From positions 48,978 to 112,977 of the forward strand of contig CAJAIA010000028.1 of assembly GCA_903939735.1 (NCBI GenBank): DNA of 64,000 nt, given 5' to 3'. The DNA comes from an uncultured Ignavibacteria bacterium. Its GTDB lineage: Bacteria > Bacteroidota > Ignavibacteria > Kapaibacteriales > Kapaibacteriaceae. Within the stretch, counting starts at the first letter, position 1. Every line of letters starts with the position of its first letter. The notes under the pieces are model-generated. The model saw only the letters and a list, made by a program, of their open reading frames with translations. It searched no databases and was not told where the DNA came from. The position numbers and the translations under genes were made by a program. Positions 34,371-52,779 of this stretch are shown here, one piece after another.

Positions 34371-35138
34371 TTAGAGCCCCTTGAGAAGACGCATTCGAAG
34401 TCCAATCGCCCGCATGAACCAGTCGTCATTGGTCAACAGGCTACCAAGGGGCATTCCGAAACCAATCGACGGCTGGATGACCATGCCATAGGCTAGGGCG
34501 ATATCATACCCTATCTGCACAAATGGCTCGACGACAATGGGTGTCGTGTGGTCGAGGAAGGTCTGAGCAATCACGACTTCTCTCCCAGGGTTCTGTCCGC
34601 TGAACTCAGCACCTGTGGGTTCAACGATGCGTTCGCGTTGCGTGAGGGCGCCCCCTATCGATGCGTGGACTCGAGCTCCGATTGTCGCTAGGAGGTTCGT
34701 TGGTCCGAGCCGCATACTTACGGATCCGAAGCCTGTTGCATATGTCAGCGATCCGTCGAGGACGTACTCAGTCTGCAGGATCTGTCCATTACTGAGGGGC
34801 ACTGGCTGTGTTGGGGCAACGAACGATGCGTGAAACACGGAAACTCCGAGGCCAGCTGAGAGGTTGATCCTTGAGCTTAGCCACTGCGTGCCGACCAGCG
34901 AGAGGGACATCGGAAGTCCCGAACCGTTGTCGAAGGTGCAGCACGTAATGCCAATCGACTCCTCGATATAGTCAAAGCTCGCAGGATAGACGGCATACGA
35001 CAGTCCAGCTTCGAGACCGAGATACGTGCGTGGAATCTCATGGGGGGCTCGTGGTGATGCCTCCCACGTATATCCTTGCGCAGCGGCGTCACACACAATC
35101 GCAAGAAGCGCTACTACGATGAACACACAGTGCTTCAT
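34371..35138 (-). CDS. outer-membrane beta-barrel protein, PorP/SprF-like partner (putative)
   Basis: Signal peptide MKHCVFIVVALLAIVCDAAAQ; alternating amphipathic strands; C-terminus ...DDWFMRAIGLRMRLLKGL is paralogous to the protein at 40534-41343; start overlaps the upstream stop (ATGA). Confidence 0.6.
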   Translation of the reverse strand: MKHCVFIVVALLAIVCDAAAQGYTWEASPRAPHEIPRTYLGLEAGLSYAVYPASFDYIEESIGITCCTFDNGSGLPMSLSLVGTQWLSSRINLSAGLGVSVFHASFVAPTQPVPLSNGQILQTEYVLDGSLTYATGFGSVSMRLGPTNLLATIGARVHASIGGALTQRERIVEPTGAEFSGQNPGREVVIAQTFLDHTTPIVVEPFVQIGYDIALAYGMVIQPSIGFGMPLGSLLTNDDWFMRAIGLRMRLLKGL

Positions 35139-37439: not shown

Positions 37440-38873
37440 TTACCACCACGAACGGAACGTGGAGAGGAACGGCGATGCTACCAATCCGAGAATGATGCTT
37501 ACAGCAGTTGTCACGACAAGCGTGATTCCTGCCAGACCAGACGTGGCTGGCTCGCGCTCACCTGATGGCTCGGTGAAGTACATCTTGACGATCAGCCCGA
37601 GGTAGAAGTATGCACTAATGACCGACGACGCGACAGCGACAAACGTAAGCCATGTGTATCCTGTTTCAACTGCCGATACAAACAGGAGATACTTCCCAAA
37701 GAAACCAGCGAACGGCGGAATACCAGCGAGCGAAAGCATGAAAACAGCCATCGAGAATGCCAGCATTGGCTCACGCTTTGCGAGTCCGGCGTAGTCGTTG
37801 ATCTCCAACAGGGAGTCATTGCCGCGCTCAAGAATACCTACGATAACGAAGGCTCCGAGCTGCATAAACACGTACGACGTTACGTAGAATACGATGCCGC
37901 TATATCCATCGGCAGTATTCGATACGATGCCCATGAGCAAGTAACCTGCGTGCGCGATCGACGAGTATGCAAGCATGCGCTTGATGTTCGTCTGTACAAC
38001 GGCCGTGATATTGCCCACCAACATCGTGATTGCCGACACAACGGCAAGCATGAGTTGAAGCTTCGGTGTCAACGTGGACGTTCCAGGCATGAGCATGATA
38101 AACAACGCGATGAACGCGCTGAAGGCAGCTGCCTTACCTGCCGTGCTCATAAAGGCCGTCACGACCGTCGGCGAACCTTCGTAGACGTCAGGTGCCCATT
38201 GATGGAATGGGAACGCTGCAACCTTAAATGACATCGCAACTGCCATCAACACAGCGCCAATAGCGAAGAGCGTTGGGAAGTTTGTTGCGTTCTGCGCTAC
38301 CACACCACGAATGACATCGTACTGCAGCGAACCCGTCGCACCGTAGATCAGGGACATACCGTAGACGAGGAATCCCGATGCAAATGCACCGAGGAGGAAG
38401 TACTTCAAGGATGCTTCAACACTGCGAATATTCGAGCGCAGGAAGCCGGCCATCACATAGAATGTGATCGACATCAATTCGATACCAACAAACAGCACGA
38501 GGAGGTTGTTGGCATGTGCCATAAGCATCATTCCCGCCGTGGCGGAGACCAACAACGTATAGAACTCATCGAGCTCTGCACCCTCACGCTGGAGGTACGG
38601 GCGTGCAGCAAGCATCGTGAGGATCCCAGATGCGCAGAACAGAACGTCGAAGTAGTTCGCGACTCCTCCGAGCGTAATCATGTCCTGGAACGTCGTGCCC
38701 TTGTGGCCAGATGTTAGAACGGCCAGGGCTGCCGTGAGCAACAGTGTGCCCAGGTAGTACCCGAAGACCAGTCGCGTGTTGTTGCGTACGAAGGCCTGGA
38801 TCGTGATACCAATCGCACCGAGTCCGAGCCAGATTGCGATGAGAGGGAGCGAGCCAAAGTAGTCGATGTGCAT
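37440..38873 (-). CDS. nuoN: NADH-quinone oxidoreductase subunit N
   Basis: 477 aa, 14-TM antiporter-like subunit; typical NuoN N-terminus and conserved helices. Confidence 0.85.
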   Translation of the reverse strand: MHIDYFGSLPLIAIWLGLGAIGITIQAFVRNNTRLVFGYYLGTLLLTAALAVLTSGHKGTTFQDMITLGGVANYFDVLFCASGILTMLAARPYLQREGAELDEFYTLLVSATAGMMLMAHANNLLVLFVGIELMSITFYVMAGFLRSNIRSVEASLKYFLLGAFASGFLVYGMSLIYGATGSLQYDVIRGVVAQNATNFPTLFAIGAVLMAVAMSFKVAAFPFHQWAPDVYEGSPTVVTAFMSTAGKAAAFSAFIALFIMLMPGTSTLTPKLQLMLAVVSAITMLVGNITAVVQTNIKRMLAYSSIAHAGYLLMGIVSNTADGYSGIVFYVTSYVFMQLGAFVIVGILERGNDSLLEINDYAGLAKREPMLAFSMAVFMLSLAGIPPFAGFFGKYLLFVSAVETGYTWLTFVAVASSVISAYFYLGLIVKMYFTEPSGEREPATSGLAGITLVVTTAVSIILGLVASPFLSTFRSWW

Positions 38874-38897
38874 GTCGTGTTTCCTACCGAACCGCGC

Positions 38898-40448
38898 TTA
38901 GCGTTGTTGCTGTGGAAGAGGCAGTACCGAAGAGACCTTGCCAGTATACGTGCCGACGCGTTCAACAACGGCCTTCACGCTTGATTCTGAGAAGTGCATG
39001 AAGTGGCGAGGAGCCACACCAATCCAGATGATGAACACAGCAAGTGGCACAAGCTGCCAATACTCGCTCGCTGTGAGGTCACGGAGATGCTTATTCTCTG
39101 GGTTGTCGTTTGTTCCGAACATTACGCGCTGGAACATCCACAGCAGATACACCGCTGCGAAGATCACACCGCTTGCGCTCACAATGGCATACATCGGGTT
39201 ATTGAGCACTGGGCTCGTATATGCGCCGAGCAGCGTGAGGAATTCACCGACGAATCCGTTGAGACCTGGAAGGCCTACCGATGCGAACATGGCAAGTGCG
39301 AAGAGCACGGCGAAGCGTGGCATAACGCTTGTGATTCCACCATAATCGGCGATTTCACGTGTGTGGCGGCGCTCATACAATGCACCAACGCACAAGAACA
39401 GCATGCCGGTCGAAAGGCCGTGATTAACCATCTGAATAACGGCACCTTGGATACCTTCGGTTGTCATCGAGAAGATGCCCAAAACAACGAAGCCCAAGTG
39501 GCTCACCGATGAATACGCAACGAGCTTCTTGATGTCGGTCTGGACCATGGCGACAAGCGCGCCATAAATGATACCGACTACGGCCAGTACCGAAATCGGC
39601 GTTGCGAATTCAACCGATGCCACTGGGAAGAGGTCGAGATTGAAACGAATCAGACCGTACGTTCCGAGCTTGAGGAGTACGCCCGCAAGGATAACGGATC
39701 CCGCTGTAGGCGCCTGCACGTGTGCATCGGGCAGCCATGTGTGCAATGGGAACAGTGGCACCTTGATCAGGAAGGACAGCGCGAAGGCCAGGAACAGCCA
39801 TGTCTGCACCTGAGGAGCAATCATTGGTGCGTGCTGACGGAGAACCGCGAGGTTGGCTGTAAAGCCATTGCCAGTCATCGCGCCTACCTCAAGGCCGAGC
39901 CAAATGATGGCAATCAGCATGAGCAGCGAGCCGACGAGCGTATACAGGAAGAACTTAATGGCTGCGTAGATACGATCCTTGCCGCCCCATATACCGATGA
40001 TGAAGTACATCGGGATGAGGATGAGTTCCCAGAACACGTAGAACAGGAATGTGTCCGTTGCCATGAAGACGCCGGTCATACCAAACTGCAGAAGCAGCAT
40101 AAGTACGTTGTATTCCTTGACGCTCTTCGTGACCGAGTTCCAGGATGTCAGGAACGCGATCGGCATGATCAGTGTCGTGAGCAGAACCAGGAGCAATGAC
40201 GTACCGTCGATACCCAGACGAAGTCCGGCATCGATAGACGTCAACCACGGCATATCAACGGTGAACTGCATTGCCGACGAACTAGCGTCGAATCCCGGGA
40301 CGAGGAGTGTCGACCCAAGGAATGTCAGCACCGAGAAGACCAAGGCGGTTGTCTTGATCGCCTTTCCTTGATCCCGATGGATAAAGAGCAGTGCCAACGA
40401 CCCCGCAAGGGGTGCAAATAATGTAGCGAGCAACGCGGCTGTGCCCAT
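38898..40448 (-). CDS. nuoM: NADH-quinone oxidoreductase subunit M
   Basis: 516 aa antiporter-like subunit; NuoM-type motifs (WLPDAH..P). Confidence 0.85.
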   Translation of the reverse strand: MGTAALLATLFAPLAGSLALLFIHRDQGKAIKTTALVFSVLTFLGSTLLVPGFDASSSAMQFTVDMPWLTSIDAGLRLGIDGTSLLLVLLTTLIMPIAFLTSWNSVTKSVKEYNVLMLLLQFGMTGVFMATDTFLFYVFWELILIPMYFIIGIWGGKDRIYAAIKFFLYTLVGSLLMLIAIIWLGLEVGAMTGNGFTANLAVLRQHAPMIAPQVQTWLFLAFALSFLIKVPLFPLHTWLPDAHVQAPTAGSVILAGVLLKLGTYGLIRFNLDLFPVASVEFATPISVLAVVGIIYGALVAMVQTDIKKLVAYSSVSHLGFVVLGIFSMTTEGIQGAVIQMVNHGLSTGMLFLCVGALYERRHTREIADYGGITSVMPRFAVLFALAMFASVGLPGLNGFVGEFLTLLGAYTSPVLNNPMYAIVSASGVIFAAVYLLWMFQRVMFGTNDNPENKHLRDLTASEYWQLVPLAVFIIWIGVAPRHFMHFSESSVKAVVERVGTYTGKVSSVLPLPQQQR

Positions 40449-40485
40449 AGGCGTCCAGTTCCGTTCTTCGATGTTGACGATGCGA

Positions 40486-40518
40486 ATAAAAAGCCCCGCA
40501 ATATAGCAAATTGGGCTC
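40486..40518 (-). terminator. putative terminator after the 9-gene operon
   Basis: Short GC stem (GAGCCC...GGGGCT) followed by TTTTT on the minus strand, between the beta-barrel gene and nuoM. Confidence 0.35.
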
Positions 40519-40533
40519 CCACGGACGGGTGAA

Positions 40534-41343
40534 TCAGAGTCCGGCCCGCCACATTACACCGACACGAAGTGCTACGGCGTTCCAATCGGTTGGATCTCTG
40601 GTAATCGGGGTAGCCGCATGAACCATCACATACGGGGTAACGAGCTGTCCGGTATATCCAAACAAACCAGCCATGATATTGACCGCGCATCCGAGTTGGA
40701 AGCCGATGCGGGTGTCCGTCGTAATCGTCGGACTGAACTGGATGCTGGTTTGTGGAAACCCTGGTTCATCGCTGACAGTCATTGTGTCGGCCAATTCTTC
40801 CTGTTGCCATACACTGGCACTCACGGAAACCGGAACGTCCAGTGTTGGTCCTGCCATAATCACTACGCCCTGGGTTCCGACGTACCACGTGGCCATGGCT
40901 GACGCGATAACGGAGAATCTGCTCACAGTTGTCGTGAATGTGGCGTTGTACGAATAGGGTTGTTGGCTAACAGGTTGCGTTGAGGTGCTCTGCAATCTCT
41001 GAACGTCGACGCCGACCATACAGATTGCACCAAAGGAAGATCGATACGGACGATACTCAATCGTCGGAGCGATCATCATGCTGGCTCCCCAACCACCTTC
41101 CGTGCGTGCGTGTGCCGAAGGGAGTTCTGGCACCGGCGACGTGATATACGTAAGGTCCAGCGTCCCGAATGCCTGATGCAGTCCGCCAGCAAGAGAGCCC
41201 CCTACCCACCACTGCTCGCGCATGAGCAGGCCTTCACGGGGCGTCTCGAGATCTTCGGCCGCCGACCCAGGAATGAGCTGCGCATAAACATGGCCTCCGA
41301 GAAGGAGTGCAAGCGCAACGAGGATGATGCGAGCGTTGGTCAT
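40534..41343 (-). CDS. outer-membrane beta-barrel protein, PorP/SprF-like (putative), last gene of the 9-gene operon
   Basis: Signal peptide MTNARIILVALALLLGGHVYAQ; beta-strand periodicity; C-terminus ...TDWNAVALRVGVMWRAGL is paralogous to 34371-35138; ATGA overlap with the upstream gene. Confidence 0.6.
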   Translation of the reverse strand: MTNARIILVALALLLGGHVYAQLIPGSAAEDLETPREGLLMREQWWVGGSLAGGLHQAFGTLDLTYITSPVPELPSAHARTEGGWGASMMIAPTIEYRPYRSSFGAICMVGVDVQRLQSTSTQPVSQQPYSYNATFTTTVSRFSVIASAMATWYVGTQGVVIMAGPTLDVPVSVSASVWQQEELADTMTVSDEPGFPQTSIQFSPTITTDTRIGFQLGCAVNIMAGLFGYTGQLVTPYVMVHAATPITRDPTDWNAVALRVGVMWRAGL

Positions 41344-42677
41344 CGCAGAATCTGCCCCTTGAGAATAACCCGAGATTGTTCAAGACCACTCTTCTCATCA
41401 ACTGGGACACCAACAAGGACGATGTTGACCAACCCTTGCGCTGCAATGGAGGATGCATCAAGTCGCGCTCGGTATCGCTGACCGCGCTCGTAGACGACGT
41501 TACGGATTGGATTACCATCGGGATCAACCAGAGTCGCGATCCTACGTCCACCAACATCGTATGCTTCAGCCGTCAGCACAAGACGATCATCAATATTGAA
41601 CTGGACTGTTGTTGTCGATGCGAAGGGATTCTCGAGCAGCACTGCATTGGAAATGATCGGCGTACCGATTCGAATGACAACTGTGTCGATAGCTATGGTG
41701 TCACCACCGTACTCCGGACGGCGCAGACCCATGAGTCGGTAGGCATATTGCTCACGGCGGTACTCAACGGGGTCGAGATATCCATCGCGCGTCTGTGGCG
41801 CAAGACACTGACACGACAGCAATGATGCATCTTGCGCATAGGAGAGTAAGGGGCGCGCAGCGAACGCATAGACAGTTGGATCGCGACGGTCGACGAGTGC
41901 CCGCTCGAACCAGTAACCATAATAACAATGCTCGTCGGTGACGTCGAAACCGAGCCGCACTTGAAGGTTGCCAGCATATTCTCCACGAAGCGTGAATTGC
42001 GCAGTACAGGAATCGCGAGGTGGATCGGATGTCGTGAACACCACGTACGATCCCATAGGCACGTTGTCGTGACGCAGATACCATACGTGCGATCCAATCG
42101 CTGTTGTCGTAACGCTATCCGACGAACGCTTGTACGAGAGTGCGAGCAGCCGCGTGTCGGTCGCGTAAGCGAGCGTATCAGATATCTGTGAGCCATCGCG
42201 CGTCGCAAGTCGAAACCTTCCGATACACAACGAGTCTCCTATGGACATCAAACGGATGCATTGATCTACGGAATCTGGGCATATCATCATCACCGACGCA
42301 TAGCCATCAATGATGTCTGTTTGTATGTGATACGCGGTGCGACCGCTTTGTTGGTACGGACCCAACGGAGCGAGCTGCGATGTTCCCGGCTCGTAGGTAA
42401 ATGTGTGTCGGCTTGAATCGAGCCCGTTTGCATTCTGCATTGTAGGCACGCCGATACGAAGAGTGGCTGTCGCAACATGCTGCCACGCAGACGATCGCTT
42501 CATTATCCAGAACTCTACGAGTGCGGATTCCGGACGCGGATCAAGGACAGTTCGCAGAACAACACTGGCAAGCGTGTCTTGCTGTGCATGTGCCGACGAC
42601 AGCACAGCCATCACAAGCGCAATGATGCAAACGACATGCTTCGCAAAGTGTTTACCGAGGTATCGCACTGTTGTCAC
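41340..42677 (-). CDS. secreted protein with T9SS-type C-terminal sorting domain (operon gene H)
   Basis: GTG start; signal peptide; C-terminal ~90 aa LENPFASTTTVQFNIDDRLVLTAEAYDVGGRRIATLVD...LDASSIAAQGLVNIVLVG...VILKG fits the Por_Secre_tail pattern. Confidence 0.6.
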   Translation of the reverse strand: MTTVRYLGKHFAKHVVCIIALVMAVLSSAHAQQDTLASVVLRTVLDPRPESALVEFWIMKRSSAWQHVATATLRIGVPTMQNANGLDSSRHTFTYEPGTSQLAPLGPYQQSGRTAYHIQTDIIDGYASVMMICPDSVDQCIRLMSIGDSLCIGRFRLATRDGSQISDTLAYATDTRLLALSYKRSSDSVTTTAIGSHVWYLRHDNVPMGSYVVFTTSDPPRDSCTAQFTLRGEYAGNLQVRLGFDVTDEHCYYGYWFERALVDRRDPTVYAFAARPLLSYAQDASLLSCQCLAPQTRDGYLDPVEYRREQYAYRLMGLRRPEYGGDTIAIDTVVIRIGTPIISNAVLLENPFASTTTVQFNIDDRLVLTAEAYDVGGRRIATLVDPDGNPIRNVVYERGQRYRARLDASSIAAQGLVNIVLVGVPVDEKSGLEQSRVILKGQILR

Positions 42678-44769
42678 GCCCCCGGTTGTTCCATGATGTA
42701 TCCCAGTCGAGCGTTGTCACTACTCCATCAAGATTTGTATCGAAGATGGAGTAACGCTGCACGACCCCACGACTTGTCCAAATACCAAGCATGTCATCGT
42801 TGGTGATCACTTCGGCGCGTCCGAGAACTGCAAGCCCTCCGTCCGTATTACCCGCCGTCATTCCGAAGTAACGACGATTACCATACGCCGATATCAACCG
42901 CTGCGTTGATGCTCCTCCGAAGAGTCCGCTACCATTCGTGAAGTCGATGTACGCTTGTGCGTTTGAGCGATCAACGAGCACAGGATCGGCTGTCGCAATC
43001 GAGAGGTGATTGCGGTGACGCACCACCAAATGATAGAGACCCGGCTGGATACTATCGATTGTCTTTTCCCGCAAGGTGCGCGGATCAAGCAGTGCACCCT
43101 GAGCGCTGAGGATCAATGTCTCGATATGCTCTGGCACTCCCGACGAGGTGAGATCTCGACGGAACTCAAGTGTCACCCAGTCGACGAGTGAATCGGCAAG
43201 CACAGCTACCGTATCACCTTTCGGCTCGAGATCAGCGAGGTATGGATAGATCCGCGGTGGAGTTTGCGGTAGCAAGCCACGCTGCACAAGTTCTGTTGAC
43301 ATCAAGGGCACTGCTGCATCCCCGATCGAACGCACTGCCCCCTCCAAGATGACACGTCCACGTAGCGCCCATACCGGACTCGCAGACATCCCAAACGCAT
43401 ATGATCCACCAGCACGAATGAACTGCGTCGAGCTGTATCTCCAGAGTGGCGATGACTCTATGCTGGAAAGCGTCGGCAGTTGAGAGAACCCATACTGTTG
43501 ATACAACGATCCGTCATACCGCAACAGCACGAGTTGTGATTCCTTTCCAATCAACTGCTGCGTGGTCTCAGGAGCCTTGGCACCCTCGATTGTCGGATCG
43601 TAGTTAATGCGCCATCCCCACCCCATCGTCATATCGAACGAGCTATCAGGGACGTTGCGACTGGCACTATCGAGGAACGACAACTCTAGCGATCGATCAA
43701 CTTTATAGAGGATGTCGCTGATCGGCAGCGGACGTGTTAATGGTTTACTGCGAATGCGAATCTGCTGCACGGCACCTTGTTGTTGCGGCGACGAAAACTG
43801 CACCCATGCATAGGCGTGATTCATGAGCATGCGCGGACCGTTGAGGAGTGCGGTGCGTTGCATCGTACCATCAACCTCTGCCCACGTGTTGACGAACGTG
43901 GGATCCCGTGGAGTATTCAGATAGACAGCATGTCTCAGAGTATCAAGCTCTTCGGTATAGAGCGTACCAGCCAGTGAGAGATGTCCGTTCACCCATGCAT
44001 CTCGCGACAGCGTTACACCTGCAAGAACATCCTGACGCACCGAGTCTAGCGTCGCGCGCGCCAAGGGCACCTCTGGTCCGGCAAGAATGGCTGAATCGCC
44101 ATACCACCGAAGATTTATCAATCCGCGAGCCCGGACGTCTGCCTGCAACGAGGCCTCTGCTCTGCGCCAGAGCCATGCAGCCGAATCAAGATTGATGTTG
44201 TCGGTTGCGGTGTTCTCCACACGTCCGCGCTGGAGATCCAGTCGATGTGTAACGCGCAACGCACTCAAATCGTACAGACGCACCGCATCCGCATTGGCGA
44301 TTTCGAGCACAGGCGTGCTTCCATTACCCGTTGCGGGCTGACGGACAACACCTGCAAGACGAAGTGTTCCCTGCCAGCTCAACGGATTGATATGCCCCCG
44401 GTGATTGACACTGTCAAGCGCTTCGATGAACGTCGCAGGTGTAAGATCAACCGTCACGAGTGAATCCGTTGTCAGGAACATCTGCGTCGTTCGAACGGGC
44501 CGCAGTCCATCAATGAGCATCTTTCGTGATTGTCCGCTCAGCAAGAGATGCTGATACGTGGTGTGCGCCACGAACTGACTATCAGCACGGTCCCTTCGAT
44601 ACTCAACCTGTCCGCCGATGGCTGCTTGATCGATACGAGCATTACCATGGACGGTGATAACACCTTCATTGGTGATCGTTCCCTCGCTTCGCAGATGCTG
44701 AACTGGCTGCGCGTGCATCTTTGCAACCGCGCACATCATGAGCAGCAGGAGGATGACGTTACTCCTCAT
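42652..44769 (-). CDS. large secreted hypothetical protein (operon gene G)
   Basis: Signal peptide MRSNVILLLLMMCAVAKMHAQ; 705 aa; ATGA overlap with gene F. Confidence 0.6.
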   Translation of the reverse strand: MRSNVILLLLMMCAVAKMHAQPVQHLRSEGTITNEGVITVHGNARIDQAAIGGQVEYRRDRADSQFVAHTTYQHLLLSGQSRKMLIDGLRPVRTTQMFLTTDSLVTVDLTPATFIEALDSVNHRGHINPLSWQGTLRLAGVVRQPATGNGSTPVLEIANADAVRLYDLSALRVTHRLDLQRGRVENTATDNINLDSAAWLWRRAEASLQADVRARGLINLRWYGDSAILAGPEVPLARATLDSVRQDVLAGVTLSRDAWVNGHLSLAGTLYTEELDTLRHAVYLNTPRDPTFVNTWAEVDGTMQRTALLNGPRMLMNHAYAWVQFSSPQQQGAVQQIRIRSKPLTRPLPISDILYKVDRSLELSFLDSASRNVPDSSFDMTMGWGWRINYDPTIEGAKAPETTQQLIGKESQLVLLRYDGSLYQQYGFSQLPTLSSIESSPLWRYSSTQFIRAGGSYAFGMSASPVWALRGRVILEGAVRSIGDAAVPLMSTELVQRGLLPQTPPRIYPYLADLEPKGDTVAVLADSLVDWVTLEFRRDLTSSGVPEHIETLILSAQGALLDPRTLREKTIDSIQPGLYHLVVRHRNHLSIATADPVLVDRSNAQAYIDFTNGSGLFGGASTQRLISAYGNRRYFGMTAGNTDGGLAVLGRAEVITNDDMLGIWTSRGVVQRYSIFDTNLDGVVTTLDWDTSWNNRGRDNSAIPR

Positions 44770-46832
44770 GGCAACCCCACGACAAGTCTGCCACCATTAA
44801 ATGCTGTGGCTTGCGGTGCGATCGTCAACAATGGTGTCATAAACGATGCTCCTCGATACACGAGCAGTCCAACATCAAGATTCAGTGCCGAAGTGTCTTG
44901 GATTGCCAGTGAAGATGGCGCTGTGCCGGATCGCAGCACAGTGACATACGACGAACGTTCTGGCACGAGAGCGAATTGCGCGAACGAACCCGTGCTCCCA
45001 ATGAGTAAGCTCGTTTGTGGACGTGGACCGAGTAGAAGCAACAGTGCGAGACTATCAGGGTATGCTTCGTTCACAGCATACCGATCGTTGTCGCGCACGA
45101 ATCCAGTGTGCACTGTGAATCCATCGATGATAACACGATCTACAGGTTCCGGCTCGCGTGCCTCATCCCACGTAAACGGGTTACTCCACCGTCCACTTGC
45201 AATCGCACGCAGAGTGTCGCGCGTAGCACGTAGCAGAAGATCATTGCCATTGTCTAATCGCTGATTATCCGGTCCAGTATCCGCGACGCCGGACACTTGC
45301 ACGAAACCGAAGAGTGAGCCACCCCCTGCGGGACGTCGTATATAGGTGGGAGGAGCTGACGGTGCGAGTTTGAATGCGCGAGGAAGTGGTGGACCATAGG
45401 CGTTGTAAAGCTTCATTAATCGCTCAGACGCATCAGGACCCCACGTGGCTGGAATATCGCTCGACTTATACCCCGCACTCACCGTTGCGCGCAACACACC
45501 CTGGTATGACACGGTGATTTTTCGCTCAACGTCAGTGAGCGGGTTGTAGGCGTTCGGCGGCGTTCTTGGTCGCACATCCATCGTTAGTTCCGCTGGACGC
45601 TGCTCGAACTTCATAGAGGTGTTCGTGTTGTTATACACGTATGTCGTAGACGTATCACCGCCCGCAAGCACACGCCGGAGCGCTCCGATTACTTCCGCAT
45701 CATTCCGATATGTCGCGGCACCAAGTGTCATAGATAGCGTATGTGGCACCATCACCACATCCGAGTCATGCACTGTGAGCGATCGCTCCATCCAGATGTC
45801 CCCGCGTGCAGTCTTGCGCGACGCGCTCGTCTTCATGTTCCCATATGCCGAGGCTGCCACCGTTGCTTGCAACTGTTGTGGTCGTACTGCATCGAATGCA
45901 ATGAGTGACGAGGGATGAAACTGCATGTTCGTGAGTGGCGCGTGGGTGTTGACGAAATCACCGCGCACAATCACCTGCGCCTGTTCACCCACGGTGAGTC
46001 GTGCCAAGGGTGACGACTGAATGCGTAGGGTCGCCGGCTGCTCAAGGATGAGGCTGTCGCTGCGATCACTCACAGTGAGTAGACCGTTCCGCACATCGAT
46101 GTCTGCGCCGATACGCGATACACCGCTCCCGCTTACCAACAGTCCTGCAGAGTCGATGCGAAGCACTGCTGACGTCTGAGCGCGTGTTCCCCAATACATC
46201 GAGCCATTGATATCGACACTACTGGACGCATCATTGATGAAGGCACTATCCATACGCACTTCATCGAGGTTGCTCACGTGCTTGGTCGAGAAGAGCAGTG
46301 TGAGATTGTTATAGCGATTCCCAACCGACGTGAGTCCGTTCTCCTGCGTAATGCGTTGTGGCGCAACACCATCGTAGAAGAACGTACCGACATAGCGTCG
46401 TGGACCTGAACTGCCGAGCTCATAGGTATTGCCCACGAGCACCGAATCAGGAATGCGCTTTACCGACGAGCTGTCAAGTGCAAGATCGGCATAGTATCGT
46501 GCTTGCAGACGCTGATCCACATTGCCATTACGAGCATACCGTACAAGACCCGGCACACGCCACGCGCGCGTTGCACCAAACGCCGTAGCACCGCGTGGAT
46601 TACCGGTGAGGTCTGTAAACACATTCGTCGTGCCGAGGAACTCGATCGTTCCGTTTGTGAGCGCTGCGTATGGCGCAGCATTACGCAGTGCGCCTGTGTC
46701 ACTCAAGAACCGAATCACACCAGTGTTGCGCACCACACCATTGACGTTGTTCTCCAGATGCTGTGCATGGACCGCTGACATCGCAGCCAGAAGCACAACT
46801 ATACGCGTCATATGGTGCAGTGTCGAGATCAC
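44766..46832 (-). CDS. large secreted hypothetical protein (operon gene F)
   Basis: GTG at 46832 overlapping gene E's stop (alternative ATG at 46811, MTRIVVLLAAMSAVHAQ); 688 aa. Confidence 0.6.
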   Translation of the reverse strand: MISTLHHMTRIVVLLAAMSAVHAQHLENNVNGVVRNTGVIRFLSDTGALRNAAPYAALTNGTIEFLGTTNVFTDLTGNPRGATAFGATRAWRVPGLVRYARNGNVDQRLQARYYADLALDSSSVKRIPDSVLVGNTYELGSSGPRRYVGTFFYDGVAPQRITQENGLTSVGNRYNNLTLLFSTKHVSNLDEVRMDSAFINDASSSVDINGSMYWGTRAQTSAVLRIDSAGLLVSGSGVSRIGADIDVRNGLLTVSDRSDSLILEQPATLRIQSSPLARLTVGEQAQVIVRGDFVNTHAPLTNMQFHPSSLIAFDAVRPQQLQATVAASAYGNMKTSASRKTARGDIWMERSLTVHDSDVVMVPHTLSMTLGAATYRNDAEVIGALRRVLAGGDTSTTYVYNNTNTSMKFEQRPAELTMDVRPRTPPNAYNPLTDVERKITVSYQGVLRATVSAGYKSSDIPATWGPDASERLMKLYNAYGPPLPRAFKLAPSAPPTYIRRPAGGGSLFGFVQVSGVADTGPDNQRLDNGNDLLLRATRDTLRAIASGRWSNPFTWDEAREPEPVDRVIIDGFTVHTGFVRDNDRYAVNEAYPDSLALLLLLGPRPQTSLLIGSTGSFAQFALVPERSSYVTVLRSGTAPSSLAIQDTSALNLDVGLLVYRGASFMTPLLTIAPQATAFNGGRLVVGLP

Positions 46833-47221
46833 GGACGTCCAATAATGATCTCGCCTTCGTTATTCAACTCACCGTCGTTGCGTATCACCCCATACACGTG
46901 CAGCACGCCTGGAGCATATCGCCAACAGATGCCGAAGCGATCAATAACAAGATTGCGCTCGATAACTACTTCGGACAGACGCTCCATGTACAGACCACCA
47001 AGCAAGACGCGCATCGTACCTGTGCAACGTAGCGTCGCTGTATCATACAACCGGATGTCGCCATCACTGCTTACGACGTCGCCGTCGATAACCATCGAAG
47101 CGCCTTCCTTGACATGAATCATTGCACCTGAGTTCGTAACAAGCTGAGCACTGGACGTCGAGGAGCCGAGGAGGGAACACAGCACCACAAAGAGTATCGA
47201 TATGAGTATGCGGTAGCGCAT
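46829..47221 (-). CDS. small secreted hypothetical protein (operon gene E)
   Basis: Internal Met MRYRILISILFVVLCSLLGSSTSSAQ whose ATG shares one nucleotide with gene D's TGA stop; 130 aa. Confidence 0.55.
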   Translation of the reverse strand: MRYRILISILFVVLCSLLGSSTSSAQLVTNSGAMIHVKEGASMVIDGDVVSSDGDIRLYDTATLRCTGTMRVLLGGLYMERLSEVVIERNLVIDRFGICWRYAPGVLHVYGVIRNDGELNNEGEIIIGRP

Positions 47222-49440
47222 CACCCACCCTTTGAAGCAGCACCCTGCCATTGCGTGCCGTCCCAGACGAGGATGATTGCTTGACCTGCTTGTAGCGTAG
47301 CGTCTGTGGCAAGCACATTGACGTTAGCTCCAGTAAGCGTGATATTCTTTGCTGAGGCAGGGATGTTCTGCACAATCACTACTTGACCAGGCGTCACACC
47401 ATCTTCCAGTGCGACGTTCTGATTGTTTGCAGAGCTATTGTTAATCCGCAGATATGCAGATGTTGACGACGCGAGTGTAGCACCTGCACCTGTCACTGTT
47501 TGATCAGTTGGAGGGAAGCTCACAACGTTTGAAGGCGATATGGAAGACACGTACCAACGTGAGTCAACGCCGGAATACGTGAACTGTGCTGACGATCTAA
47601 ATGCTATCGCTACCTTATCGTTGTCTGGCGTAATGATGCGATTGGCAGCAACGCTTGCTGTTGACTGTGGTTCGACAACAATCGGGTATCCAGATGCATT
47701 GATGATGGTAAATGTCTTACCAGCAACACCACCTTCAAAGCCTGTAATTGTTCTTGTTGCCGTTTGTGTTCCCACACGAACAAGCGCGAATCGATTGTCA
47801 TTGCCATCGAAATCAACATCGTTGTTGTTACCGGCAACAAGCGTTCCAGTGTAGCTGTACTCGGTGTACGCGAGGTCACCGTCCAGATCAAGCGTAGCAT
47901 CAGGCGTATCGTCACCAACCCCTACGCGTCCACCTGTGAAGATGGCGGCGTAGTTACTAGTTCCACCAGATACCGCGACAGAAAGTCCAATGTTTGTGCC
48001 CGTCCACGAACCTGTTGAAGAGATAAGCAACCCACGCTTCGTCAGCGTCGACGTCGACGTCGATGTGTTAATCAGCGACATCGTAGTGTCGTTGGCCGTC
48101 TGTGCTCCCGACTCAGACAAGGCAAGGAGTTCACTTGAACGGGATGTCGTGACAAGATTCAATGTGCGAAGTGTGGTGTCCCACGCTACGTCAGCTGACG
48201 ACGTGAGCTCGGTTGAAGACTTGAAGAATGCAACTTGCGTAGGTGTACCACTAAACGTTGCAGACACGGTAAGCCAATCAAGCGTTGCTTCCGATCCCGA
48301 GATCGAGGCGATACGCGGCACCTGCCCAACGGCTCCGAGTGTAGATGGCAACACATACGACGTGTTTGTCGTCATCGCCCCCGCGCGGAGGGATACTGTG
48401 TTGTCGGCAGGGTACGATGTTGATGCACTCGGTTCCATAAAGGTCAGCCGAGACGAACTATTCGTTGAGTTCGTAAGCACCAGGTCTGCATTGTGGACAA
48501 CGGCAGCGTTCGCATCGTCCACCTGATAGAGCGAATTCGTACCACTCCAAACCAGTGAGTTCGAACTTCGCACAGTTACACCACCGCCGCCGAGTATGAT
48601 ACTGTTTGACGAGGGGAACCCCGCCAGTCCGATTCGATTGTCATTGCCCGATAGGATCGTACTCGATACGCTCGCAACGATTGCATTAGAACTACCGTTA
48701 ATGATCACCGACGTATCGCTGGATCCATCGATACTGTTACTATCACCGGTCACAATCGCCGAAAGCACTCCATCGGCGAGATTGTAGTTCCCGCTCACAA
48801 CCAATGAATAATCATTTGTCGCACGATTTCGGTATCCCGAGACGACAAGCGAGTACACGTCAGACGTGAGATTGTTGCGTCCTCCAAGAATTGTTGCGTG
48901 TCGTGCCGTCGCACGATTCGAGTCTCCACCGATAGCGAGCGACAACTGGCCGGAAGATGTATTGCTCCGTCCAGAGAGGATTGCCGCGTATTGACCGGAG
49001 GCCGTTTGTGATGCAAGTTCACGACTCGCTTGCCCGTCGAACGCGCCAAGACCTGGCGATCCCTGTGGACCTGACATAAACGCCGTTCGACGACGAATGT
49101 TAAACGATCCTTGTTGCTGTTCTTCGAAGATGATAGGAACATCTATCGACGGAGCAACAGTCCACTTGAGATACGCCGTCGTGCCGAGCAAGCTCTCGAC
49201 TTGAAGCACTGCATTAATCGCTGGCGCTGGTGCCGAAGGAAGTAAGAGCGTGTAATCCTGCGTCTGCGACGTAGAGTCCTGCGGTGCAATCAGGATCGTA
49301 TTCTTTCGCGTGCCCGCGGCTGAACCACCATCGTTCAGGATGAGCGTACGTCCACGGAGATCCCCACTCTGCTGTGCGAATACAGGTTGATGTATTGCAA
49401 TCACAAGCAGCAGAACGAGTATGCGCATCGTATTGTTCAT
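47221..49440 (-). CDS. secreted repeat protein with YadA-head/Hep_Hag-like 14-16-aa repeats (operon gene D)
   Basis: Signal peptide MNNTMRILVLLLVIAIHQPVFAQ; repeats SLAIGGDSNRATAR/HATILGGRNNLTSD/YSLVVSGYRNRATND/YSLVVSGNYNLADG/VLSAIVTGDSNSIDG/...; C-terminal block GGRVGVGDDTPDATLDLDGDLAY; start overlaps gene C's stop. Confidence 0.65.
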   Translation of the reverse strand: MNNTMRILVLLLVIAIHQPVFAQQSGDLRGRTLILNDGGSAAGTRKNTILIAPQDSTSQTQDYTLLLPSAPAPAINAVLQVESLLGTTAYLKWTVAPSIDVPIIFEEQQQGSFNIRRRTAFMSGPQGSPGLGAFDGQASRELASQTASGQYAAILSGRSNTSSGQLSLAIGGDSNRATARHATILGGRNNLTSDVYSLVVSGYRNRATNDYSLVVSGNYNLADGVLSAIVTGDSNSIDGSSDTSVIINGSSNAIVASVSSTILSGNDNRIGLAGFPSSNSIILGGGGVTVRSSNSLVWSGTNSLYQVDDANAAVVHNADLVLTNSTNSSSRLTFMEPSASTSYPADNTVSLRAGAMTTNTSYVLPSTLGAVGQVPRIASISGSEATLDWLTVSATFSGTPTQVAFFKSSTELTSSADVAWDTTLRTLNLVTTSRSSELLALSESGAQTANDTTMSLINTSTSTSTLTKRGLLISSTGSWTGTNIGLSVAVSGGTSNYAAIFTGGRVGVGDDTPDATLDLDGDLAYTEYSYTGTLVAGNNNDVDFDGNDNRFALVRVGTQTATRTITGFEGGVAGKTFTIINASGYPIVVEPQSTASVAANRIITPDNDKVAIAFRSSAQFTYSGVDSRWYVSSISPSNVVSFPPTDQTVTGAGATLASSTSAYLRINNSSANNQNVALEDGVTPGQVVIVQNIPASAKNITLTGANVNVLATDATLQAGQAIILVWDGTQWQGAASKGG

Positions 49441-50198
49441 CAGTTCGTCATCCTTGATGCTTTGACATACGATCCTTGGAGTATCCGTATGGTGCCGCTT
49501 GACGTGACACCACCCCGCAGTTGAAGTGTCGACGTCGACGCACTCACAACGACGATTCCCTTGACGAGCAGCGCATTATCACGCGTTGCATCTGACGATT
49601 GCACTGGAAGGTCGATCACCGTGCCCGTGGTTGTCGTTACCCAATTCGGCGATAGACCTATTCCATCTGCGCCAACAACCGTCCACCGCAAGAGTGTTGG
49701 TGCTGGAGTAACGGCCACGGAGAGCTTAAGACTCGCATCAGTCGATGTACCATCGTACGCGATAAGTGCTTCGAACTCATACACCTTTGCTGCAACGAGT
49801 CCCGCGGCGCCCAAAAGTGTGAGATCAGTCATCGTGGTTGATGTAAGTGACTGATCGGCTGTCGTATAGGAGAACAGTGCTGCCGCAGCTGCCGCCTCTG
49901 GAGTCCACTCGAGCGTAGCCGATGTAGCTGTCGGCGCAGGCGAAGTGGCAATGCGCAACACCGCACCTGGAATGATAGGGATCGTCGACGGGAGTGTATA
50001 GGTGCGTGTCGCTGCGAGTCCAAGCGGTGCGAGGAATTCGACCGCATTTGCATTGTCGCTCATCAGGCGCAACAACCTTGTACGCACAGGGAGCTGCCCA
50101 CGCATGTCAGTAGCACCGACAAGCGCAAGGCACAGCACGGCCACGCATGCACTCAGCACGCGGCCTAGCGATCGAATATGGGAGGCACAACGTCGCAC
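49440..50198 (-). CDS. secreted hypothetical protein, paralogue family (operon gene C)
   Basis: Signal peptide then GQLPVRTRLLRLMSD motif shared with gene B; Thr/Ala-rich. Confidence 0.55.
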   Translation of the reverse strand: MRRCASHIRSLGRVLSACVAVLCLALVGATDMRGQLPVRTRLLRLMSDNANAVEFLAPLGLAATRTYTLPSTIPIIPGAVLRIATSPAPTATSATLEWTPEAAAAAALFSYTTADQSLTSTTMTDLTLLGAAGLVAAKVYEFEALIAYDGTSTDASLKLSVAVTPAPTLLRWTVVGADGIGLSPNWVTTTTGTVIDLPVQSSDATRDNALLVKGIVVVSASTSTLQLRGGVTSSGTIRILQGSYVKASRMTN

Positions 50199-50263
50199 GG
50201 TATTACGCGCTGCCGTGTGAACACATGCAGCGGTAAGCCTCTAGCAACTGAGATGTAAATCCG

Positions 50264-51130
50264 TTACGGTACAGGGATAAACATGTAAGAGATTCGCTCG
50301 CTGGTCAGGAACGGACCAGTGGATGTCACCGTGTACGTTGTACCAGTGAAACCAGTAATCGAGAGAATATTCCCACTTGGTGATCCGCTGATGTCATACG
50401 ATGTAATCACGATCACATCATTTGCATCTGGAGTAGCCGTGAGTGTGATTGTAGCTGTGAAACCAGCATCGGTAGGATCGACGACACCACGCTCAAATCC
50501 AGCGAGTGGATTCGTTGTCCACGTTGCCGCACCTGCAGCTGTCGACACCAGCAGTTGTCCGGCAGCACTCGGCTCATTGGTAGCAGCTGGGAAGTAGAAC
50601 GTACCACCCCCGGCGATGGCCGAGATGTTGTATGTGTGATTGGCAGCAATCGTCTCAGGAGCGATTGCGAGTGTCTGTGTCCCATTGGTGAAGATCATTT
50701 CCGCTGTCTCACCAGTCTGTCCCATCGTAAGCGTATTCGTTGCATCATCCCATTGGAAGCCAATCTCACCTGTCAGTGTGTTGGCGTCGTTCCAGTATGC
50801 AATGTAGTTGTCGGCTGGTGTGGTGCCGCCGTTGTCGACCAGTTCACCATTGACTGCATACCATGAGAGGTCGGAGTTTCCTGCTGTTCCAGCATTGGTG
50901 CGCAGGAAATACTGTGTCGTGCCAGCTGGTGCTGGCCACGTGGCGTTTGCGGCAGGCCACGTTACCGAGAATGACGTCGTCGTAGCCGTTGCCAGTTGCG
51001 TCATGGTTCCGCTCGTTGAACCAAGCAGTTGCAACTGTCGCGTACGAACAGGAAGCTGAGCTTGCACATCAACAGCACAAGCAAGGATGACTACGAGTGT
51101 AGTCAGCGAAATAAGGAGACGAGTGTTCAT
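50264..51130 (-). CDS. secreted hypothetical protein, paralogue family (operon gene B)
   Basis: Internal Met MNTRLLISLTTLVVILACAVDVQAQ with a GGAG RBS; AQLPVRTRQLQLLGS motif; Thr/Gly/Ala-rich. Confidence 0.55.
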   Translation of the reverse strand: MNTRLLISLTTLVVILACAVDVQAQLPVRTRQLQLLGSTSGTMTQLATATTTSFSVTWPAANATWPAPAGTTQYFLRTNAGTAGNSDLSWYAVNGELVDNGGTTPADNYIAYWNDANTLTGEIGFQWDDATNTLTMGQTGETAEMIFTNGTQTLAIAPETIAANHTYNISAIAGGGTFYFPAATNEPSAAGQLLVSTAAGAATWTTNPLAGFERGVVDPTDAGFTATITLTATPDANDVIVITSYDISGSPSGNILSITGFTGTTYTVTSTGPFLTSERISYMFIPVP

Positions 51131-51171
51131 TATACCACTCCAAGTGAAATGAGGGAAAGAGAGATTGTTCA

Positions 51172-52014
51172 TCATGGATTCTTCACAAGCCAATTCAACG
51201 ATTCATTAGGATTCAGTCCGCCAGGGAAACTGACGGTGAAGGATGTCGCTGTGCGCGATCCTGACACAACAACTGGCGTGATCGATACGCTGATTGACGC
51301 TTCGGGTGTGATCGTGATCGAGGCATCCTGCGCCAGCGCAAAACCCGCTGGCAGGGACACGACTACAGTGAACTGGGGATCAGACGTTGCGTTGGTGTAC
51401 CGACCCGACGCAATACCAAGTTTGGCTAAGAGGTCCGAGGCATCTCGTTTTGACAACGCACCGGTAGCATCAGCCATTACGATGCCGTCGTTCGTAGCAA
51501 GTGCTGGACGTTGTGAAACGCCAGAGAGTGATTGCATTGCGATTGCGCCGGTGGTGGGTGCAATCGTCATGCGCACAACGCCATTAGTCCCGAAACGCAC
51601 CGTTGAAGTATCACGCGAACCCATGTAGGACGTCGCCTGGAGCGAGTCATTCCCACTGAGCGACCAATACAGCTTGTCGGCATTGCCACCCGGCGCTTGC
51701 GTCCACATCAGGGTTACCCACACGGGTGCCACTGGCGTGCCGATATTGTACTGATACGCACTCACGGTTGTGTTGTAGATCAACAGCGATGTGGCTGGTA
51801 ACGCAATCGCATCTCGCTGCGCGGTGCTCATGCGTGGAGCAAGCATACCCTTTTGTGTGCTCGACAGTTCAAGAAGGGCCGATGGATCTGGTGTTGCTAT
51901 CCCGATACCAACATTCCGCGATTGAGCAGACAACTCCCCCACTCCCAGATGTAATAGGAATGCAACAACACAGCAGCGAAGCAGCAGGCCGATTGAGATG
52001 TCAGCGCGTATCAC
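51172..52014 (-). CDS. secreted hypothetical protein with NVGIG..TP...PRMS..QRDAI motif (operon gene A)
   Basis: GTG start; signal peptide; SRNVGIGIATPDPSALLELSSTQKGMLAPRMSTAQRDAIALPATSLLIYNTT...YQYNIGTPVAPVW resembles a motif I recall in Bacteroidota 'tail fiber domain-containing' surface proteins. Confidence 0.55.
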   Translation of the reverse strand: MIRADISIGLLLRCCVVAFLLHLGVGELSAQSRNVGIGIATPDPSALLELSSTQKGMLAPRMSTAQRDAIALPATSLLIYNTTVSAYQYNIGTPVAPVWVTLMWTQAPGGNADKLYWSLSGNDSLQATSYMGSRDTSTVRFGTNGVVRMTIAPTTGAIAMQSLSGVSQRPALATNDGIVMADATGALSKRDASDLLAKLGIASGRYTNATSDPQFTVVVSLPAGFALAQDASITITPEASISVSITPVVVSGSRTATSFTVSFPGGLNPNESLNWLVKNP

Positions 52015-52152: not shown

Positions 52153-52779
52153 ATGAGTTGCGGTTGCGTACTTTTGTCGCAACACAACAGCGCAGGGGTG
52201 AATTACGTGGCACGTGCGGGGTACATCGTCGTTGGTCTTGGCAACCCGGGCTCGGAGTATGCAGCAACGCGACACAACATCGGGTTCATGGTCATTGATG
52301 CCTTCGTCGCTGCACATAAGGGCGTATGGAAGCATGGAAAGCTTGCCGACACATGCGAGATTACGCTCTCAGCCACCCGGGTGCTTGCTGTTAAGCCCCT
52401 TACATACATGAACTTATCTGGCAAAGCCGCTGCACACGTTGCACATGAACTCTCAGTGCCCGCCTCGCGCGTCATTGCGATCACGGATGAGTATAACTTC
52501 CCTACGGGTCGCATTCACCTCAAGCGTGGAGGGAGCGACGGCGGACATAACGGTATCTCCTCGATGATCGAAGAACTGCGTACACCTGAGTTCTGGAGGA
52601 TGCGGTGCGGCATTGATCGCAAGTTCGGGCCAGGTCAACTCGTCGAGTATGTGCTGGCCCCCTTCCCTGAGGAAGAGCGTGAAGCGGTAGAGCTCATGAT
52701 TCGATCTGCGGTAGTTGGACTCGACGAATGTATTCGGAGCGGACCCGAGATCGCGATGAATCGGATCAATCGCGCTTGA
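52153..52779 (+). CDS. pth: peptidyl-tRNA hydrolase
   Basis: YIVVGLGNPGSEYAATRHNIGFMVIDAF is the canonical Pth N-terminus; the true start is probably GTG at ~52198 or 52207 rather than the 52153 ATG. Confidence 0.88.
   Translation: MSCGCVLLSQHNSAGVNYVARAGYIVVGLGNPGSEYAATRHNIGFMVIDAFVAAHKGVWKHGKLADTCEITLSATRVLAVKPLTYMNLSGKAAAHVAHELSVPASRVIAITDEYNFPTGRIHLKRGGSDGGHNGISSMIEELRTPEFWRMRCGIDRKFGPGQLVEYVLAPFPEEEREAVELMIRSAVVGLDECIRSGPEIAMNRINRA

Follow-up and report, generated by a model that had tools for sequence, protein, structure and literature searches.

Nine consecutive genes (A to I) on the minus strand of the window, by which we mean the whole 64,000-nucleotide stretch of DNA analyzed here, from an uncultured Kapabacteria-like bacterium, appear to form an undescribed, vertically inherited cell-envelope locus that is analogous to the adhesin operons of type IX secretion systems (T9SS) and not a member of them. 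On sequence comparison the locus seems to be made of two parts, a conserved core (E-I) and a variable cassette (A-D). An earlier note on this DNA had treated the nine genes as one uniform unit, a view that did not survive the comparison with other loci, where the cassette is replaced by giant proteins. We regard it as an even call that the locus encodes a lineage-specific fibre or adhesin assembly, in which E-I would provide a conserved basal module and A-D, or a giant protein, an exchangeable distal one; how it may work is proposed below.

Re-reading of the window returned the nine open reading frames and coordinates that had been reported, with no internal stops, and an independent gene caller made identical calls on the source contig (ENA k141_637698, 305 kb) except for a shorter start of C (234 aa). 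Six junctions overlap, as previously described: C/D and D/E by 1 nt each (TGATG), E/F by 4 nt (GTGA), F/G and H/I by 4 nt each (ATGA), and G/H by 26 nt. The remaining gaps measure 41 nt (A-B) and 65 nt (B-C). The overlaps suggest co-translation, whereas the stoichiometric co-production that had been deduced from them does not follow. Read from the sequences, all nine products begin with a hydrophobic signal sequence with Gln directly after its end (+1), in keeping with the signal peptides noted earlier; that of H is the Sec signal peptide MTTVRYLGKHFAKHVVCIIALVMAVLSSAHA, followed by QQ. The flanks are housekeeping genes, as had been said. On one side lies the peptidyl-tRNA hydrolase gene pth (52153-52779, plus strand; PF01195), divergent from A, and on the other two nuoM/nuoN-type genes (37440-40448, minus strand; two Proton_antipo_M matches), co-directional with the locus and beginning 85 nt downstream of I. 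These latter genes are probably outside the system, and their inclusion in the unit was rejected because in relatives an opposite-strand histidine-kinase gene lies between I and nuoM/N. A scan for promoter and terminator motifs gave counts equal to the shuffled expectation, and a hairpin with U-tract after I was no more stable than in shuffles.

When all nine proteins were scanned directly against Pfam, NCBIfam and PHROG, only the domains of D were matched, which agrees with the earlier observation that none belongs to a recognizable enzyme family. E, F, G and the N-terminal part of H are not covered by any family in Pfam, NCBIfam, PHROG or the PDB, and PDB sequence and profile searches with A, B and C and with F, G and H profiles gave nothing significant. 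The proteins could be assigned to no characterized system, as the claim of an undescribed system requires, and literature searches on PTL_trimer, Phage_depo_C, Kapabacteria T9SS and Chloroherpeton gliding turned up no mention of the cluster.

The core recurs elsewhere. It was found at 69 loci with a full-length G, from MAGs of Kapabacteria, Ignavibacteria and the Chlorobi group, and about 60 related genomes keep E-F-G-H-I in the same order. H comes after G in 60 of 62 loci, I is no more than 5 kb from G in 56 of 57, and F is ahead of G in 45 of 52. Absence of gene-order conservation in relatives was the refutation test proposed in the earlier note; when it was run over these loci, the order was found to be kept. 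The arrangement of E-I is not due to chance, since dozens of distinct genomes show it. The chromosomal position of the locus, between pth and nuoMN, is likewise constant among relatives, down to 35% identity. The lineage of the window is without three features of its relatives, namely an OmpA domain on I, a gene for a WD40 protein with a T9SS C-terminal sorting domain (CTD) and an adjacent sensor kinase; the system may therefore work differently, or be reduced, in this lineage.

G (705 aa; 42652-44769, minus strand) combines a beta-helix with a docking-like C-terminal domain. Residues ~30-340 (43750-44682) were modelled as a right-handed parallel beta-helix whose best structural matches are adhesins, while the AF2 model of the C-terminal half is of low confidence. 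The N-terminal half of G, and F by homology, shares its fold with beta-helical adhesins of type V secretion (Ag43, TibA, FHA/HMW1) and with Gram-positive and fungal ones (tapirin, SRRP, Awp). F and G match no Pfam lyase, hydrolase or Beta_helix model and no PDB sequence, and they resemble such enzymes in fold only. Type V secretion itself was rejected: in Pfam and NCBIfam scans the nine proteins contain no TPS domain, Omp85 TpsB partner or autotransporter beta-domain, and I is 8-stranded. Residues 450-705 of G (42655-43422) form a widespread, unannotated domain with the motifs VDWVTVEFR, HRNHLS, DxNxDGxVxTxD and WNNR. It matches 3,312 representative proteins at E≤1e-3, nearly all at the extreme C-terminus, and the N-terminal parts differ among these 3,312 protein clusters. 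Varied N-terminal parts followed by a shared end domain are what a docking or anchoring module would be expected to show. The domain recalls cellulosome dockerins in its D-x-N-x-D-G-x-[IV]-x-T-x-D loop, a calcium loop predicted from the motif, and in that it ends, over ~250 aa, thousands of otherwise unrelated secreted proteins; it differs from them in being far larger and in having no Dockerin_1 Pfam match.

F (688 aa; 44766-46832, minus strand) is a paralogue of G over its N-terminal ~440 aa (hhalign probability 99.2%, E 1e-19), and this homology suggests a beta-helix in F as well; among 36 F-family members, Pfam and PDB matches were both zero. F ends in an NxGxIxIG-type tail. Across the loci this C-terminal tail is present in 30 of 47 F proteins and in 26 of 41 proteins encoded upstream of F, and in none of 47 G proteins. 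Outside these three sets the strict motif was found in 19 of 1,241 ORFs, every one of which is an E, an F or a giant protein of the cluster. E (130 aa; 46829-47221, minus strand), a putative secreted adaptor that ends in the same tail, corresponds to the last ~100 aa of the giant proteins (hhalign probability 95.3%, E 2e-8), a link that was also found with an HMM for which only stand-alone E sequences were used. The tail thus appears to be specific to the cluster, common to E, the giant proteins and F and absent elsewhere in these loci.

The cassette is patchy from locus to locus. A (280 aa; 51172-52014, minus strand) is a fibre-like secreted protein with an N-terminal PTL_trimer module (PF26696, precomputed Pfam annotation); over residues 35-104 it shares 53% identity with a phage protein, and at other loci the same N-terminal module begins proteins that are 280-1,212 aa long. 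B (288 aa; 50264-51130) and C (252 aa, or 234 aa by the gene caller; 49440-50198), both on the minus strand and secreted, have no family match. The matches of B in the PDB are Ig/FN3-like and all non-significant, and its orthologues are confined to a few loci. A, B and C had been called three short paralogues. They are indeed related, but weakly and patchily (A-B, 27% identity over 165 aa; B-C, 28% over 85 aa), and we do not claim that B, C and D have an N-terminal module in common, as the similarity is weak and partly low-complexity.

D (739 aa; 47221-49440, minus strand), recognized as a fibre protein from its ORF and domain matches, confirms the YadA-head-like repeats that had been read in it. 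Residues ~153-316 (48493-48984) are UspA1/YadA-head-like left-handed beta-roll repeats that match the UspA1 head (3pr7) in three stretches in a phmmer search of the PDB (E 1.4e-9); a match to LbR_Ice_bind reached 25 bits, under the cutoff. Residues 653-732 (47245-47484) form a Phage_depo_C beta-sandwich (PF25692, 43 bits, where the cutoff is 25). D therefore resembles trimeric autotransporter adhesins (YadA/UspA1) in its head repeats and differs from them at its C-terminus, where Pfam finds Phage_depo_C instead of the YadA membrane-anchor barrel. The sandwich of D and the trimerisation-type N-terminal module of A, common to phage proteins, are shared with phage receptor-binding proteins and tailspikes, and conserved N-terminal modules carrying variable distal parts are also a trait of phage fibres. 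The local matches of A and D to phage tail-fibre genes cover short modules only, and unlike phage receptor-binding proteins these proteins have no phage context, carry Sec signal peptides and are encoded at a syntenic chromosomal locus. In distant loci, giant proteins of 2,000-2,600 aa that carry a GEVED domain stand in place of A-E, and a WD40 protein with a type A CTD is encoded.

The beta-helix fold is as typical of polysaccharide lyases and epimerases as it is of adhesins. F and G could on this basis be enzymes with a beta-helix (lyases, epimerases or depolymerases), and D could be a depolymerase-like tailspike. I would keep their complex close to the outer membrane, and the substrate would be either capsule or exopolysaccharide of the cell itself or glycans from the environment. 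We consider such a polysaccharide-processing complex unlikely. Members of the F, G and D families match no lyase, hydrolase or Beta_helix Pfam model, the closest structures are adhesins, and genes for glycosyltransferases, Wza/Wzc, SusC/D or transporters are absent in and beside the cluster at all loci examined. The exchange of A-E for a 2,500-aa repetitive protein is also easier to reconcile with an adhesin than with an enzyme.

A route to the cell surface is suggested by H (445 aa; 41340-42677, minus strand), in which an N-terminal domain of no known family is followed by a putative, divergent T9SS C-terminal sorting domain. Profile-profile comparison placed a CTD-like beta-sandwich at residues ~346-445 (41343-41642). 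The H-tail profile aligned with bona fide Por_Secre_tail tails (hhalign probability 96.5%, E 7e-10), so that the earlier assignment of H as a T9SS-CTD protein is supported at profile level, and the H-tail HMM reciprocally matched the CTD of a subtilase encoded in the window. PF18962 is matched, weakly, by 7 of 51 members of the H family; the H sequence of the window gave no direct Pfam or NCBIfam match at E≤1 (PF18962/TIGR04183), its CTD being detectable by profile-profile comparison only. The H tail aligns with type-A-like CTD tails, and other CTD proteins are encoded in the same genome. The tails of A-G compared with T9SS CTDs at a probability below 1%, which leaves H as the only one of the nine proteins with a recognizable outer-membrane export signal. 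This weighs against the fibre or adhesin reading, in which the other eight proteins would also have to reach the surface.

The cluster could instead build a scaffold that is not surface exposed, in which proteins with only a signal peptide form a periplasmic or outer-membrane-integrity structure of beta-helices, fastened to an OmpA-like protein and, where relatives are concerned, to peptidoglycan as well. We think this quite improbable, in view of the putative T9SS sorting domain on H and of two features of distant loci that are typical of secreted proteins, the GEVED domain on the giant proteins and the type A CTD on the WD40 protein. The fast-evolving, modular and phage-fibre-like character of A-D further suggests an external selective pressure.

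The terminal gene, I (269 aa; 40534-41343, minus strand), encodes an 8-stranded OmpA-type outer-membrane barrel, as judged from its model and its orthologues. The model matches the 8-stranded barrels OmpA, OprF-N, NspA, OmpW and TtoA, and the orthologues are OmpA-family proteins; it is not the PorP/SprF-like barrel that the earlier note had seen here. The OmpA_C peptidoglycan-binding domain (PF00691) is present in 34 of 47 I orthologues and was not found in the I of the window. The short and long forms are homologous across the barrel, and I of the window has lost the domain. OMP_b-brl_2 is reached by only 12 of 47 members of the family. Thus I shares the barrel fold of the OmpA family, most of its orthologues share OmpA_C as well, and the barrel region is a distinct subfamily strictly linked to the F-G-H genes.

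These features invite comparison with the T9SS adhesin operons sprCDBF of F. johnsoniae and PorP-PorE-PG1035 of P. gingivalis, in which adhesin genes, accessory secreted proteins, a CTD protein and a barrel gene are likewise co-directional. PorP-PorE complexes anchor non-mobile type-B cargo (PMC9143113). The present locus could be a divergent member of these operons, with H or the fibres as type-B cargo and I as a PorP/SprF-like anchor. The gene for H, the putative CTD protein, overlaps that of barrel I by 4 nt, and in relatives the barrel is joined by a beta-propeller protein and an OmpA-type peptidoglycan-binding domain, as PorP is by PorE (PMC9143113). We nevertheless judge membership very unlikely and largely refuted: an NCBIfam scan of the nine proteins at E≤1 found no type-B sorting domain, the barrel is 8-stranded and OmpA-type rather than the 14-stranded FadL-like barrel of PorP/SprF, the adhesin or fibre proteins here are without any CTD, and no described T9SS or gliding protein is homologous to E, F, G or the N-terminal part of H. 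A remnant prophage tail-fibre module or tailocin, to which the short modules that A and D share with phage tail-fibre genes and the Phage_depo_C of D might point, is scarcely credible and was rejected for the whole locus, as the earlier note had anticipated, given that capsid, terminase, integrase, sheath, tube and baseplate genes are absent within ±10 kb, the Pfam content of the flanks is housekeeping, no PHROG match is significant, every protein carries a Sec signal peptide, relatives of F and G are absent from 2.9 M viral contigs (IMG/VR), the base composition is unremarkable and the pth-nuoMN position is constant in relatives.

The analysis shows the gene content, the conserved gene order, the homologies and the folds of G and I. 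For the fibre or adhesin assembly that we favor, we infer a surface location, an order of assembly, binding partners and an adhesive function as follows. All nine proteins would cross the inner membrane via Sec and signal peptidase I. I, a small OmpA-type barrel, would insert into the outer membrane and in most relatives would also be tied to peptidoglycan via the OmpA domain, and H would be exported by the type IX secretion system via its C-terminal sorting domain and retained at the surface. The paralogues F and G may act as a stalk or adaptor, with G docking via its dockerin-like calcium-loop domain and with the protein encoded directly upstream of F, either E or a giant protein, joining F via their common NxGxIxIG tail. 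A-D would then be trimeric fibres, similar to phage receptor-binding proteins, that give variable binding specificity. A bolder proposal, which we put forward only tentatively and with low confidence, is that E-I constitute a new envelope assembly system of Kapabacteria, Ignavibacteria and Chlorobi that uses a sorting or assembly signal of its own. Proteins with the NxGxIxIG tail (E or a giant adhesin, and F) would be recruited, linked head to tail onto G and H in the order of their genes, and displayed on a dedicated OmpA-type barrel. This would be a new class of surface filament, exported without a T9SS CTD on each subunit, and the C-terminal 250-aa domain of G would be a new and widespread docking module.

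Kapabacteria, Ignavibacteria and the non-photosynthetic Chlorobi-group bacteria are often met with in sediments, groundwater, hot springs and wastewater, and to our knowledge almost nothing is known about their cell surface. The locus offers a conserved, strictly ordered gene set of this lineage that is without known function and that is linked to the T9SS through H and to an OmpA-type anchor through I. Its swappable phage-fibre-like genes, the NxGxIxIG tail and the C-terminal domain of G provide testable handles on how large adhesins are mounted on the envelope beyond the well-studied Bacteroidia and Flavobacteriia models. Should the fibres prove to be receptor-binding proteins taken over from phages, the locus would also exemplify the exchange of modules between phage and host for adhesion.

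The nine minus-strand ORFs of the cluster (A to I; window 40534-52014, A first and the barrel gene I last) were recovered with exactly the coordinates of the earlier note and without internal stops, and an independent gene caller run on the source contig made the same calls, the sole exception being a shorter start for C. This contig is k141_637698, a 305-kb metagenome contig in ENA with which the window agrees in full. The overlapping junctions reported previously were also found: C/D and D/E share one base (TGATG), E/F four (GTGA), F/G and H/I four (ATGA), and G/H 26, and gaps of 41 nt and 65 nt separate A from B and B from C. As had been proposed, all nine products, read from their sequences, begin with a hydrophobic N-terminal signal sequence. 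In each, a glutamine follows directly, and a signal sequence ending before glutamine is the pattern termed the Bacteroidetes Q-rule (PMC5837995). The flanks are indeed housekeeping genes, with pth next to A and two nuoM/N-type genes next to I; the latter (37440-40448) are co-directional with I and begin 85 nt downstream of it, and a nuoL-type gene is absent immediately upstream of this pair. Base composition is flat over the window. Just after the I stop codon and before nuoM, a hairpin (GGGAGCCC...GGGGCU) followed by UUUUUAUU (window 40470-40533) has the look of a terminator, yet it folds with no better energy than shuffled sequence (z -0.05).

Close relatives of G formed just 16 clusters in a set of 5.8 billion proteins, the furthest from a Candidatus Kapabacteria MAG. 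Scanning one genome per species with the G alignment gave 80 loci in MAGs labelled Kapaibacterium, Kapabacteria, Ignavibacteria, Chlorobiota and Chloroherpeton, and per-gene HMMs were mapped onto the six-frame ORFs of all loci. Gene order was counted among the 69 loci with a full-length G: H lay directly downstream of G in 60 of the 62 whose flank was long enough, I was no more than 5 kb from G in 56/57, and F was directly upstream of G in 45/52. The earlier note had treated the cluster as a unit whose order should recur in relatives, and the order of H, I and F around G is kept in most loci. In closer relatives the whole locus occupies the same chromosomal position as in the window (SpoIIE, pth ... 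nuoM, nuoN, DUF1573/ASH CTD protein), and its inheritance is therefore vertical. Many loci of the Kapabacteria/Ignavibacteria type (L011, L013, L015, L023, L026 and others) came from MAG records titled 'uncultured Hyphomicrobiales', 'Bradyrhizobiaceae', 'Chloroflexota' or 'Melioribacter', titles that probably reflect taxonomic mislabels or bin contamination in public records.

Distant loci (e.g., L046 and L024) differ in content, with a single ~2,500-aa protein carrying a GEVED domain in place of A-E and two-component regulators after the cluster. Between H and I, 23/56 loci (L046 13426-15318, L024 13328-15220 and 21 further loci) encode a WD40 beta-propeller protein of 630 aa that carries a type A T9SS sorting domain; the window lacks it. 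Relatives have regulator genes beside the cluster, and the window has none there: in some a TPR-histidine kinase gene in the opposite orientation follows I, in others a response regulator is accompanied by a CHASE/PAS kinase (L003 14322-16232; L005 14262-16304; L046 16794-20575). A ~215-aa ORF between the giant gene and F in L019, L040 and L045 (~6475-7134) has a C-terminus that looked LuxR-type by eye.

Pfam, NCBIfam and PHROGs yielded almost no matches when scanned directly with the cluster proteins. A-D are patchy among loci: their number, length and domain make-up vary, some loci lack them, and their conserved N-terminal modules are borne by proteins of widely differing length. The N-terminus of A carries a PTL_trimer module (PF26696, precomputed annotation), which elsewhere in Bacteroidota is fused to Fib_succ_major, FGE-sulfatase, Lcl_C, Kelch or collagen parts, and A is 53% identical to a cyanophage protein over 70 residues. 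Searches with B and C gave no significant match. The mutual similarity expected if A-C were paralogues was present, yet weak and patchy. The YadA-head likeness claimed for D held, residues ~153-316 matching the UspA1 head 3pr7 from trimeric autotransporters (E 1.4e-9), and no YadA anchor was found in D. Its C-terminus is a Phage_depo_C sandwich (43 bits vs a cutoff of 25), and short stretches match annotated phage tail-fibre genes. In some relatives (L011 947-6811, L013 1-5614 and L015 1-7371), tandem arrays of three or four D-like paralogues, each ~610-700 aa long, take the place of A-C, which suggests fibre-gene expansion through duplication.

The window's H had no direct match to sorting-domain models, and 7/51 H-family members matched Por_Secre_tail. 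A profile of the H tail aligned with bona fide sorting domains of neighbouring genes (prob 96.5%, E 7e-10), which supports at profile level the T9SS C-terminal sorting domain (CTD) previously assigned to it, and an H-tail HMM reciprocally recovered the sorting domain of a subtilase within the same window. Judged by profile alignment, the H C-terminus is a T9SS sorting domain of divergent sequence; no resemblance to sorting domains (prob <1%) was seen in the tails of E, F and G or of the giant proteins (2,000-2,600 aa, standing in for A-E in distant loci). An HMM built from neighbouring-gene tails found CTD-like tails on four other window ORFs: the 958-aa subtilase (4181-7057, plus strand), a 541-aa ORF (30304-31929, plus strand), a 762-aa DUF1573/ASH protein downstream of nuoN (35135-37423, minus strand) and a 292-aa ORF (62932-63810, minus strand). 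By sequence, these tails indicate that the organism uses the T9SS. The reading of I as a PorP/SprF-like barrel was not sustained: its orthologues are OmpA-type, with a C-terminal OmpA peptidoglycan-binding domain in 34/47 and an OMP_b-brl_2 match in 12, whereas PorP-like proteins are 14-stranded barrels of the FadL family (PMC9143113). The window's short I shows homology to the barrel region of the longer I forms (prob 99.8%).

F and G are paralogous in an N-terminal stretch of ~400 residues (hhalign prob 99.2%, E 1e-19), and E corresponds by homology to the C-terminal ~100 residues of the giant proteins (prob 95.3%, E 2e-8). The extreme C-termini of E, the giant proteins and F have in common a tail, N-x-[GS]-x-[ILV]-x-[ILV]-G plus 0-3 further residues (window 46829-46870 in E, 44766-44810 in F). 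N-x-G-x-I rungs resembling it are present in the mature N-termini of F and G. Across loci L007-L079 this tail ended 30/47 F proteins, 26/41 proteins whose genes immediately precede F and 0/47 G proteins; in the 1,241 remaining ORFs of the fetched loci, its sole bearers belonged to the cluster as E, F or giant proteins. The tail is a candidate signal for assembly or sorting.

We give roughly even chances to the locus encoding an envelope-anchored fibre or adhesin assembly. I would serve as the outer-membrane anchor, tied in most lineages to peptidoglycan as well, and H would be exported via the T9SS. F and G would make up a beta-helical stalk. The proteins that bear the tail, namely F and either E or the giant adhesin, may enter the complex via their common C-terminal element, and A-D would be variable, phage-fibre-like distal parts.

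G ends in a ~250-aa domain (residues 450-705, window 42655-43422) that no model covers in the Pfam and NCBIfam copies used. At E<=1e-3 it matches 3,312 representative proteins, nearly always at the extreme C-terminus, and has the motifs VDWV.VE.R and HRNHL and a conserved calcium-loop-like, dockerin-like D-x-N-x-D-G-x-[IV]-x-T-x-D, then WNNR. In L082, a Melioribacteraceae locus, five genes in tandem all end in such a domain. In secreted proteins its N-terminal partners are varied and include GDSL lipase with LamG, FG-GAP, beta-helix and GH-like parts.

The main weakness of the fibre or adhesin model is that H alone has a recognisable outer-membrane export signal. Among the rival readings of the cluster, a polysaccharide-processing complex is improbable. 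A scaffold confined to the periplasm is a quite improbable reading. That the cluster is a divergent form of the canonical type-B T9SS adhesin operon is very unlikely; the defining features of such operons were checked and not found. A prophage remnant is scarcely credible, and F and G had no relatives in 2.9 million viral contigs.

By function, the nearest known systems to the proposed fibre or adhesin assembly are those T9SS adhesin operons that include a dedicated anchor (sprCDBF; PorP-PorE-PG1035), PorE being echoed by the beta-propeller and OmpA domain of relatives (the WD40 part is absent from the window). The family-defining sequences of these systems are all missing from the cluster, which is therefore an analogue and not a member of the T9SS adhesin operons. 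No description of the cluster was found in the searchable literature. The most probable reading is an adhesin locus anchored in the outer membrane; that it represents a truly new assembly system, carrying a signal of its own, has a modest probability.
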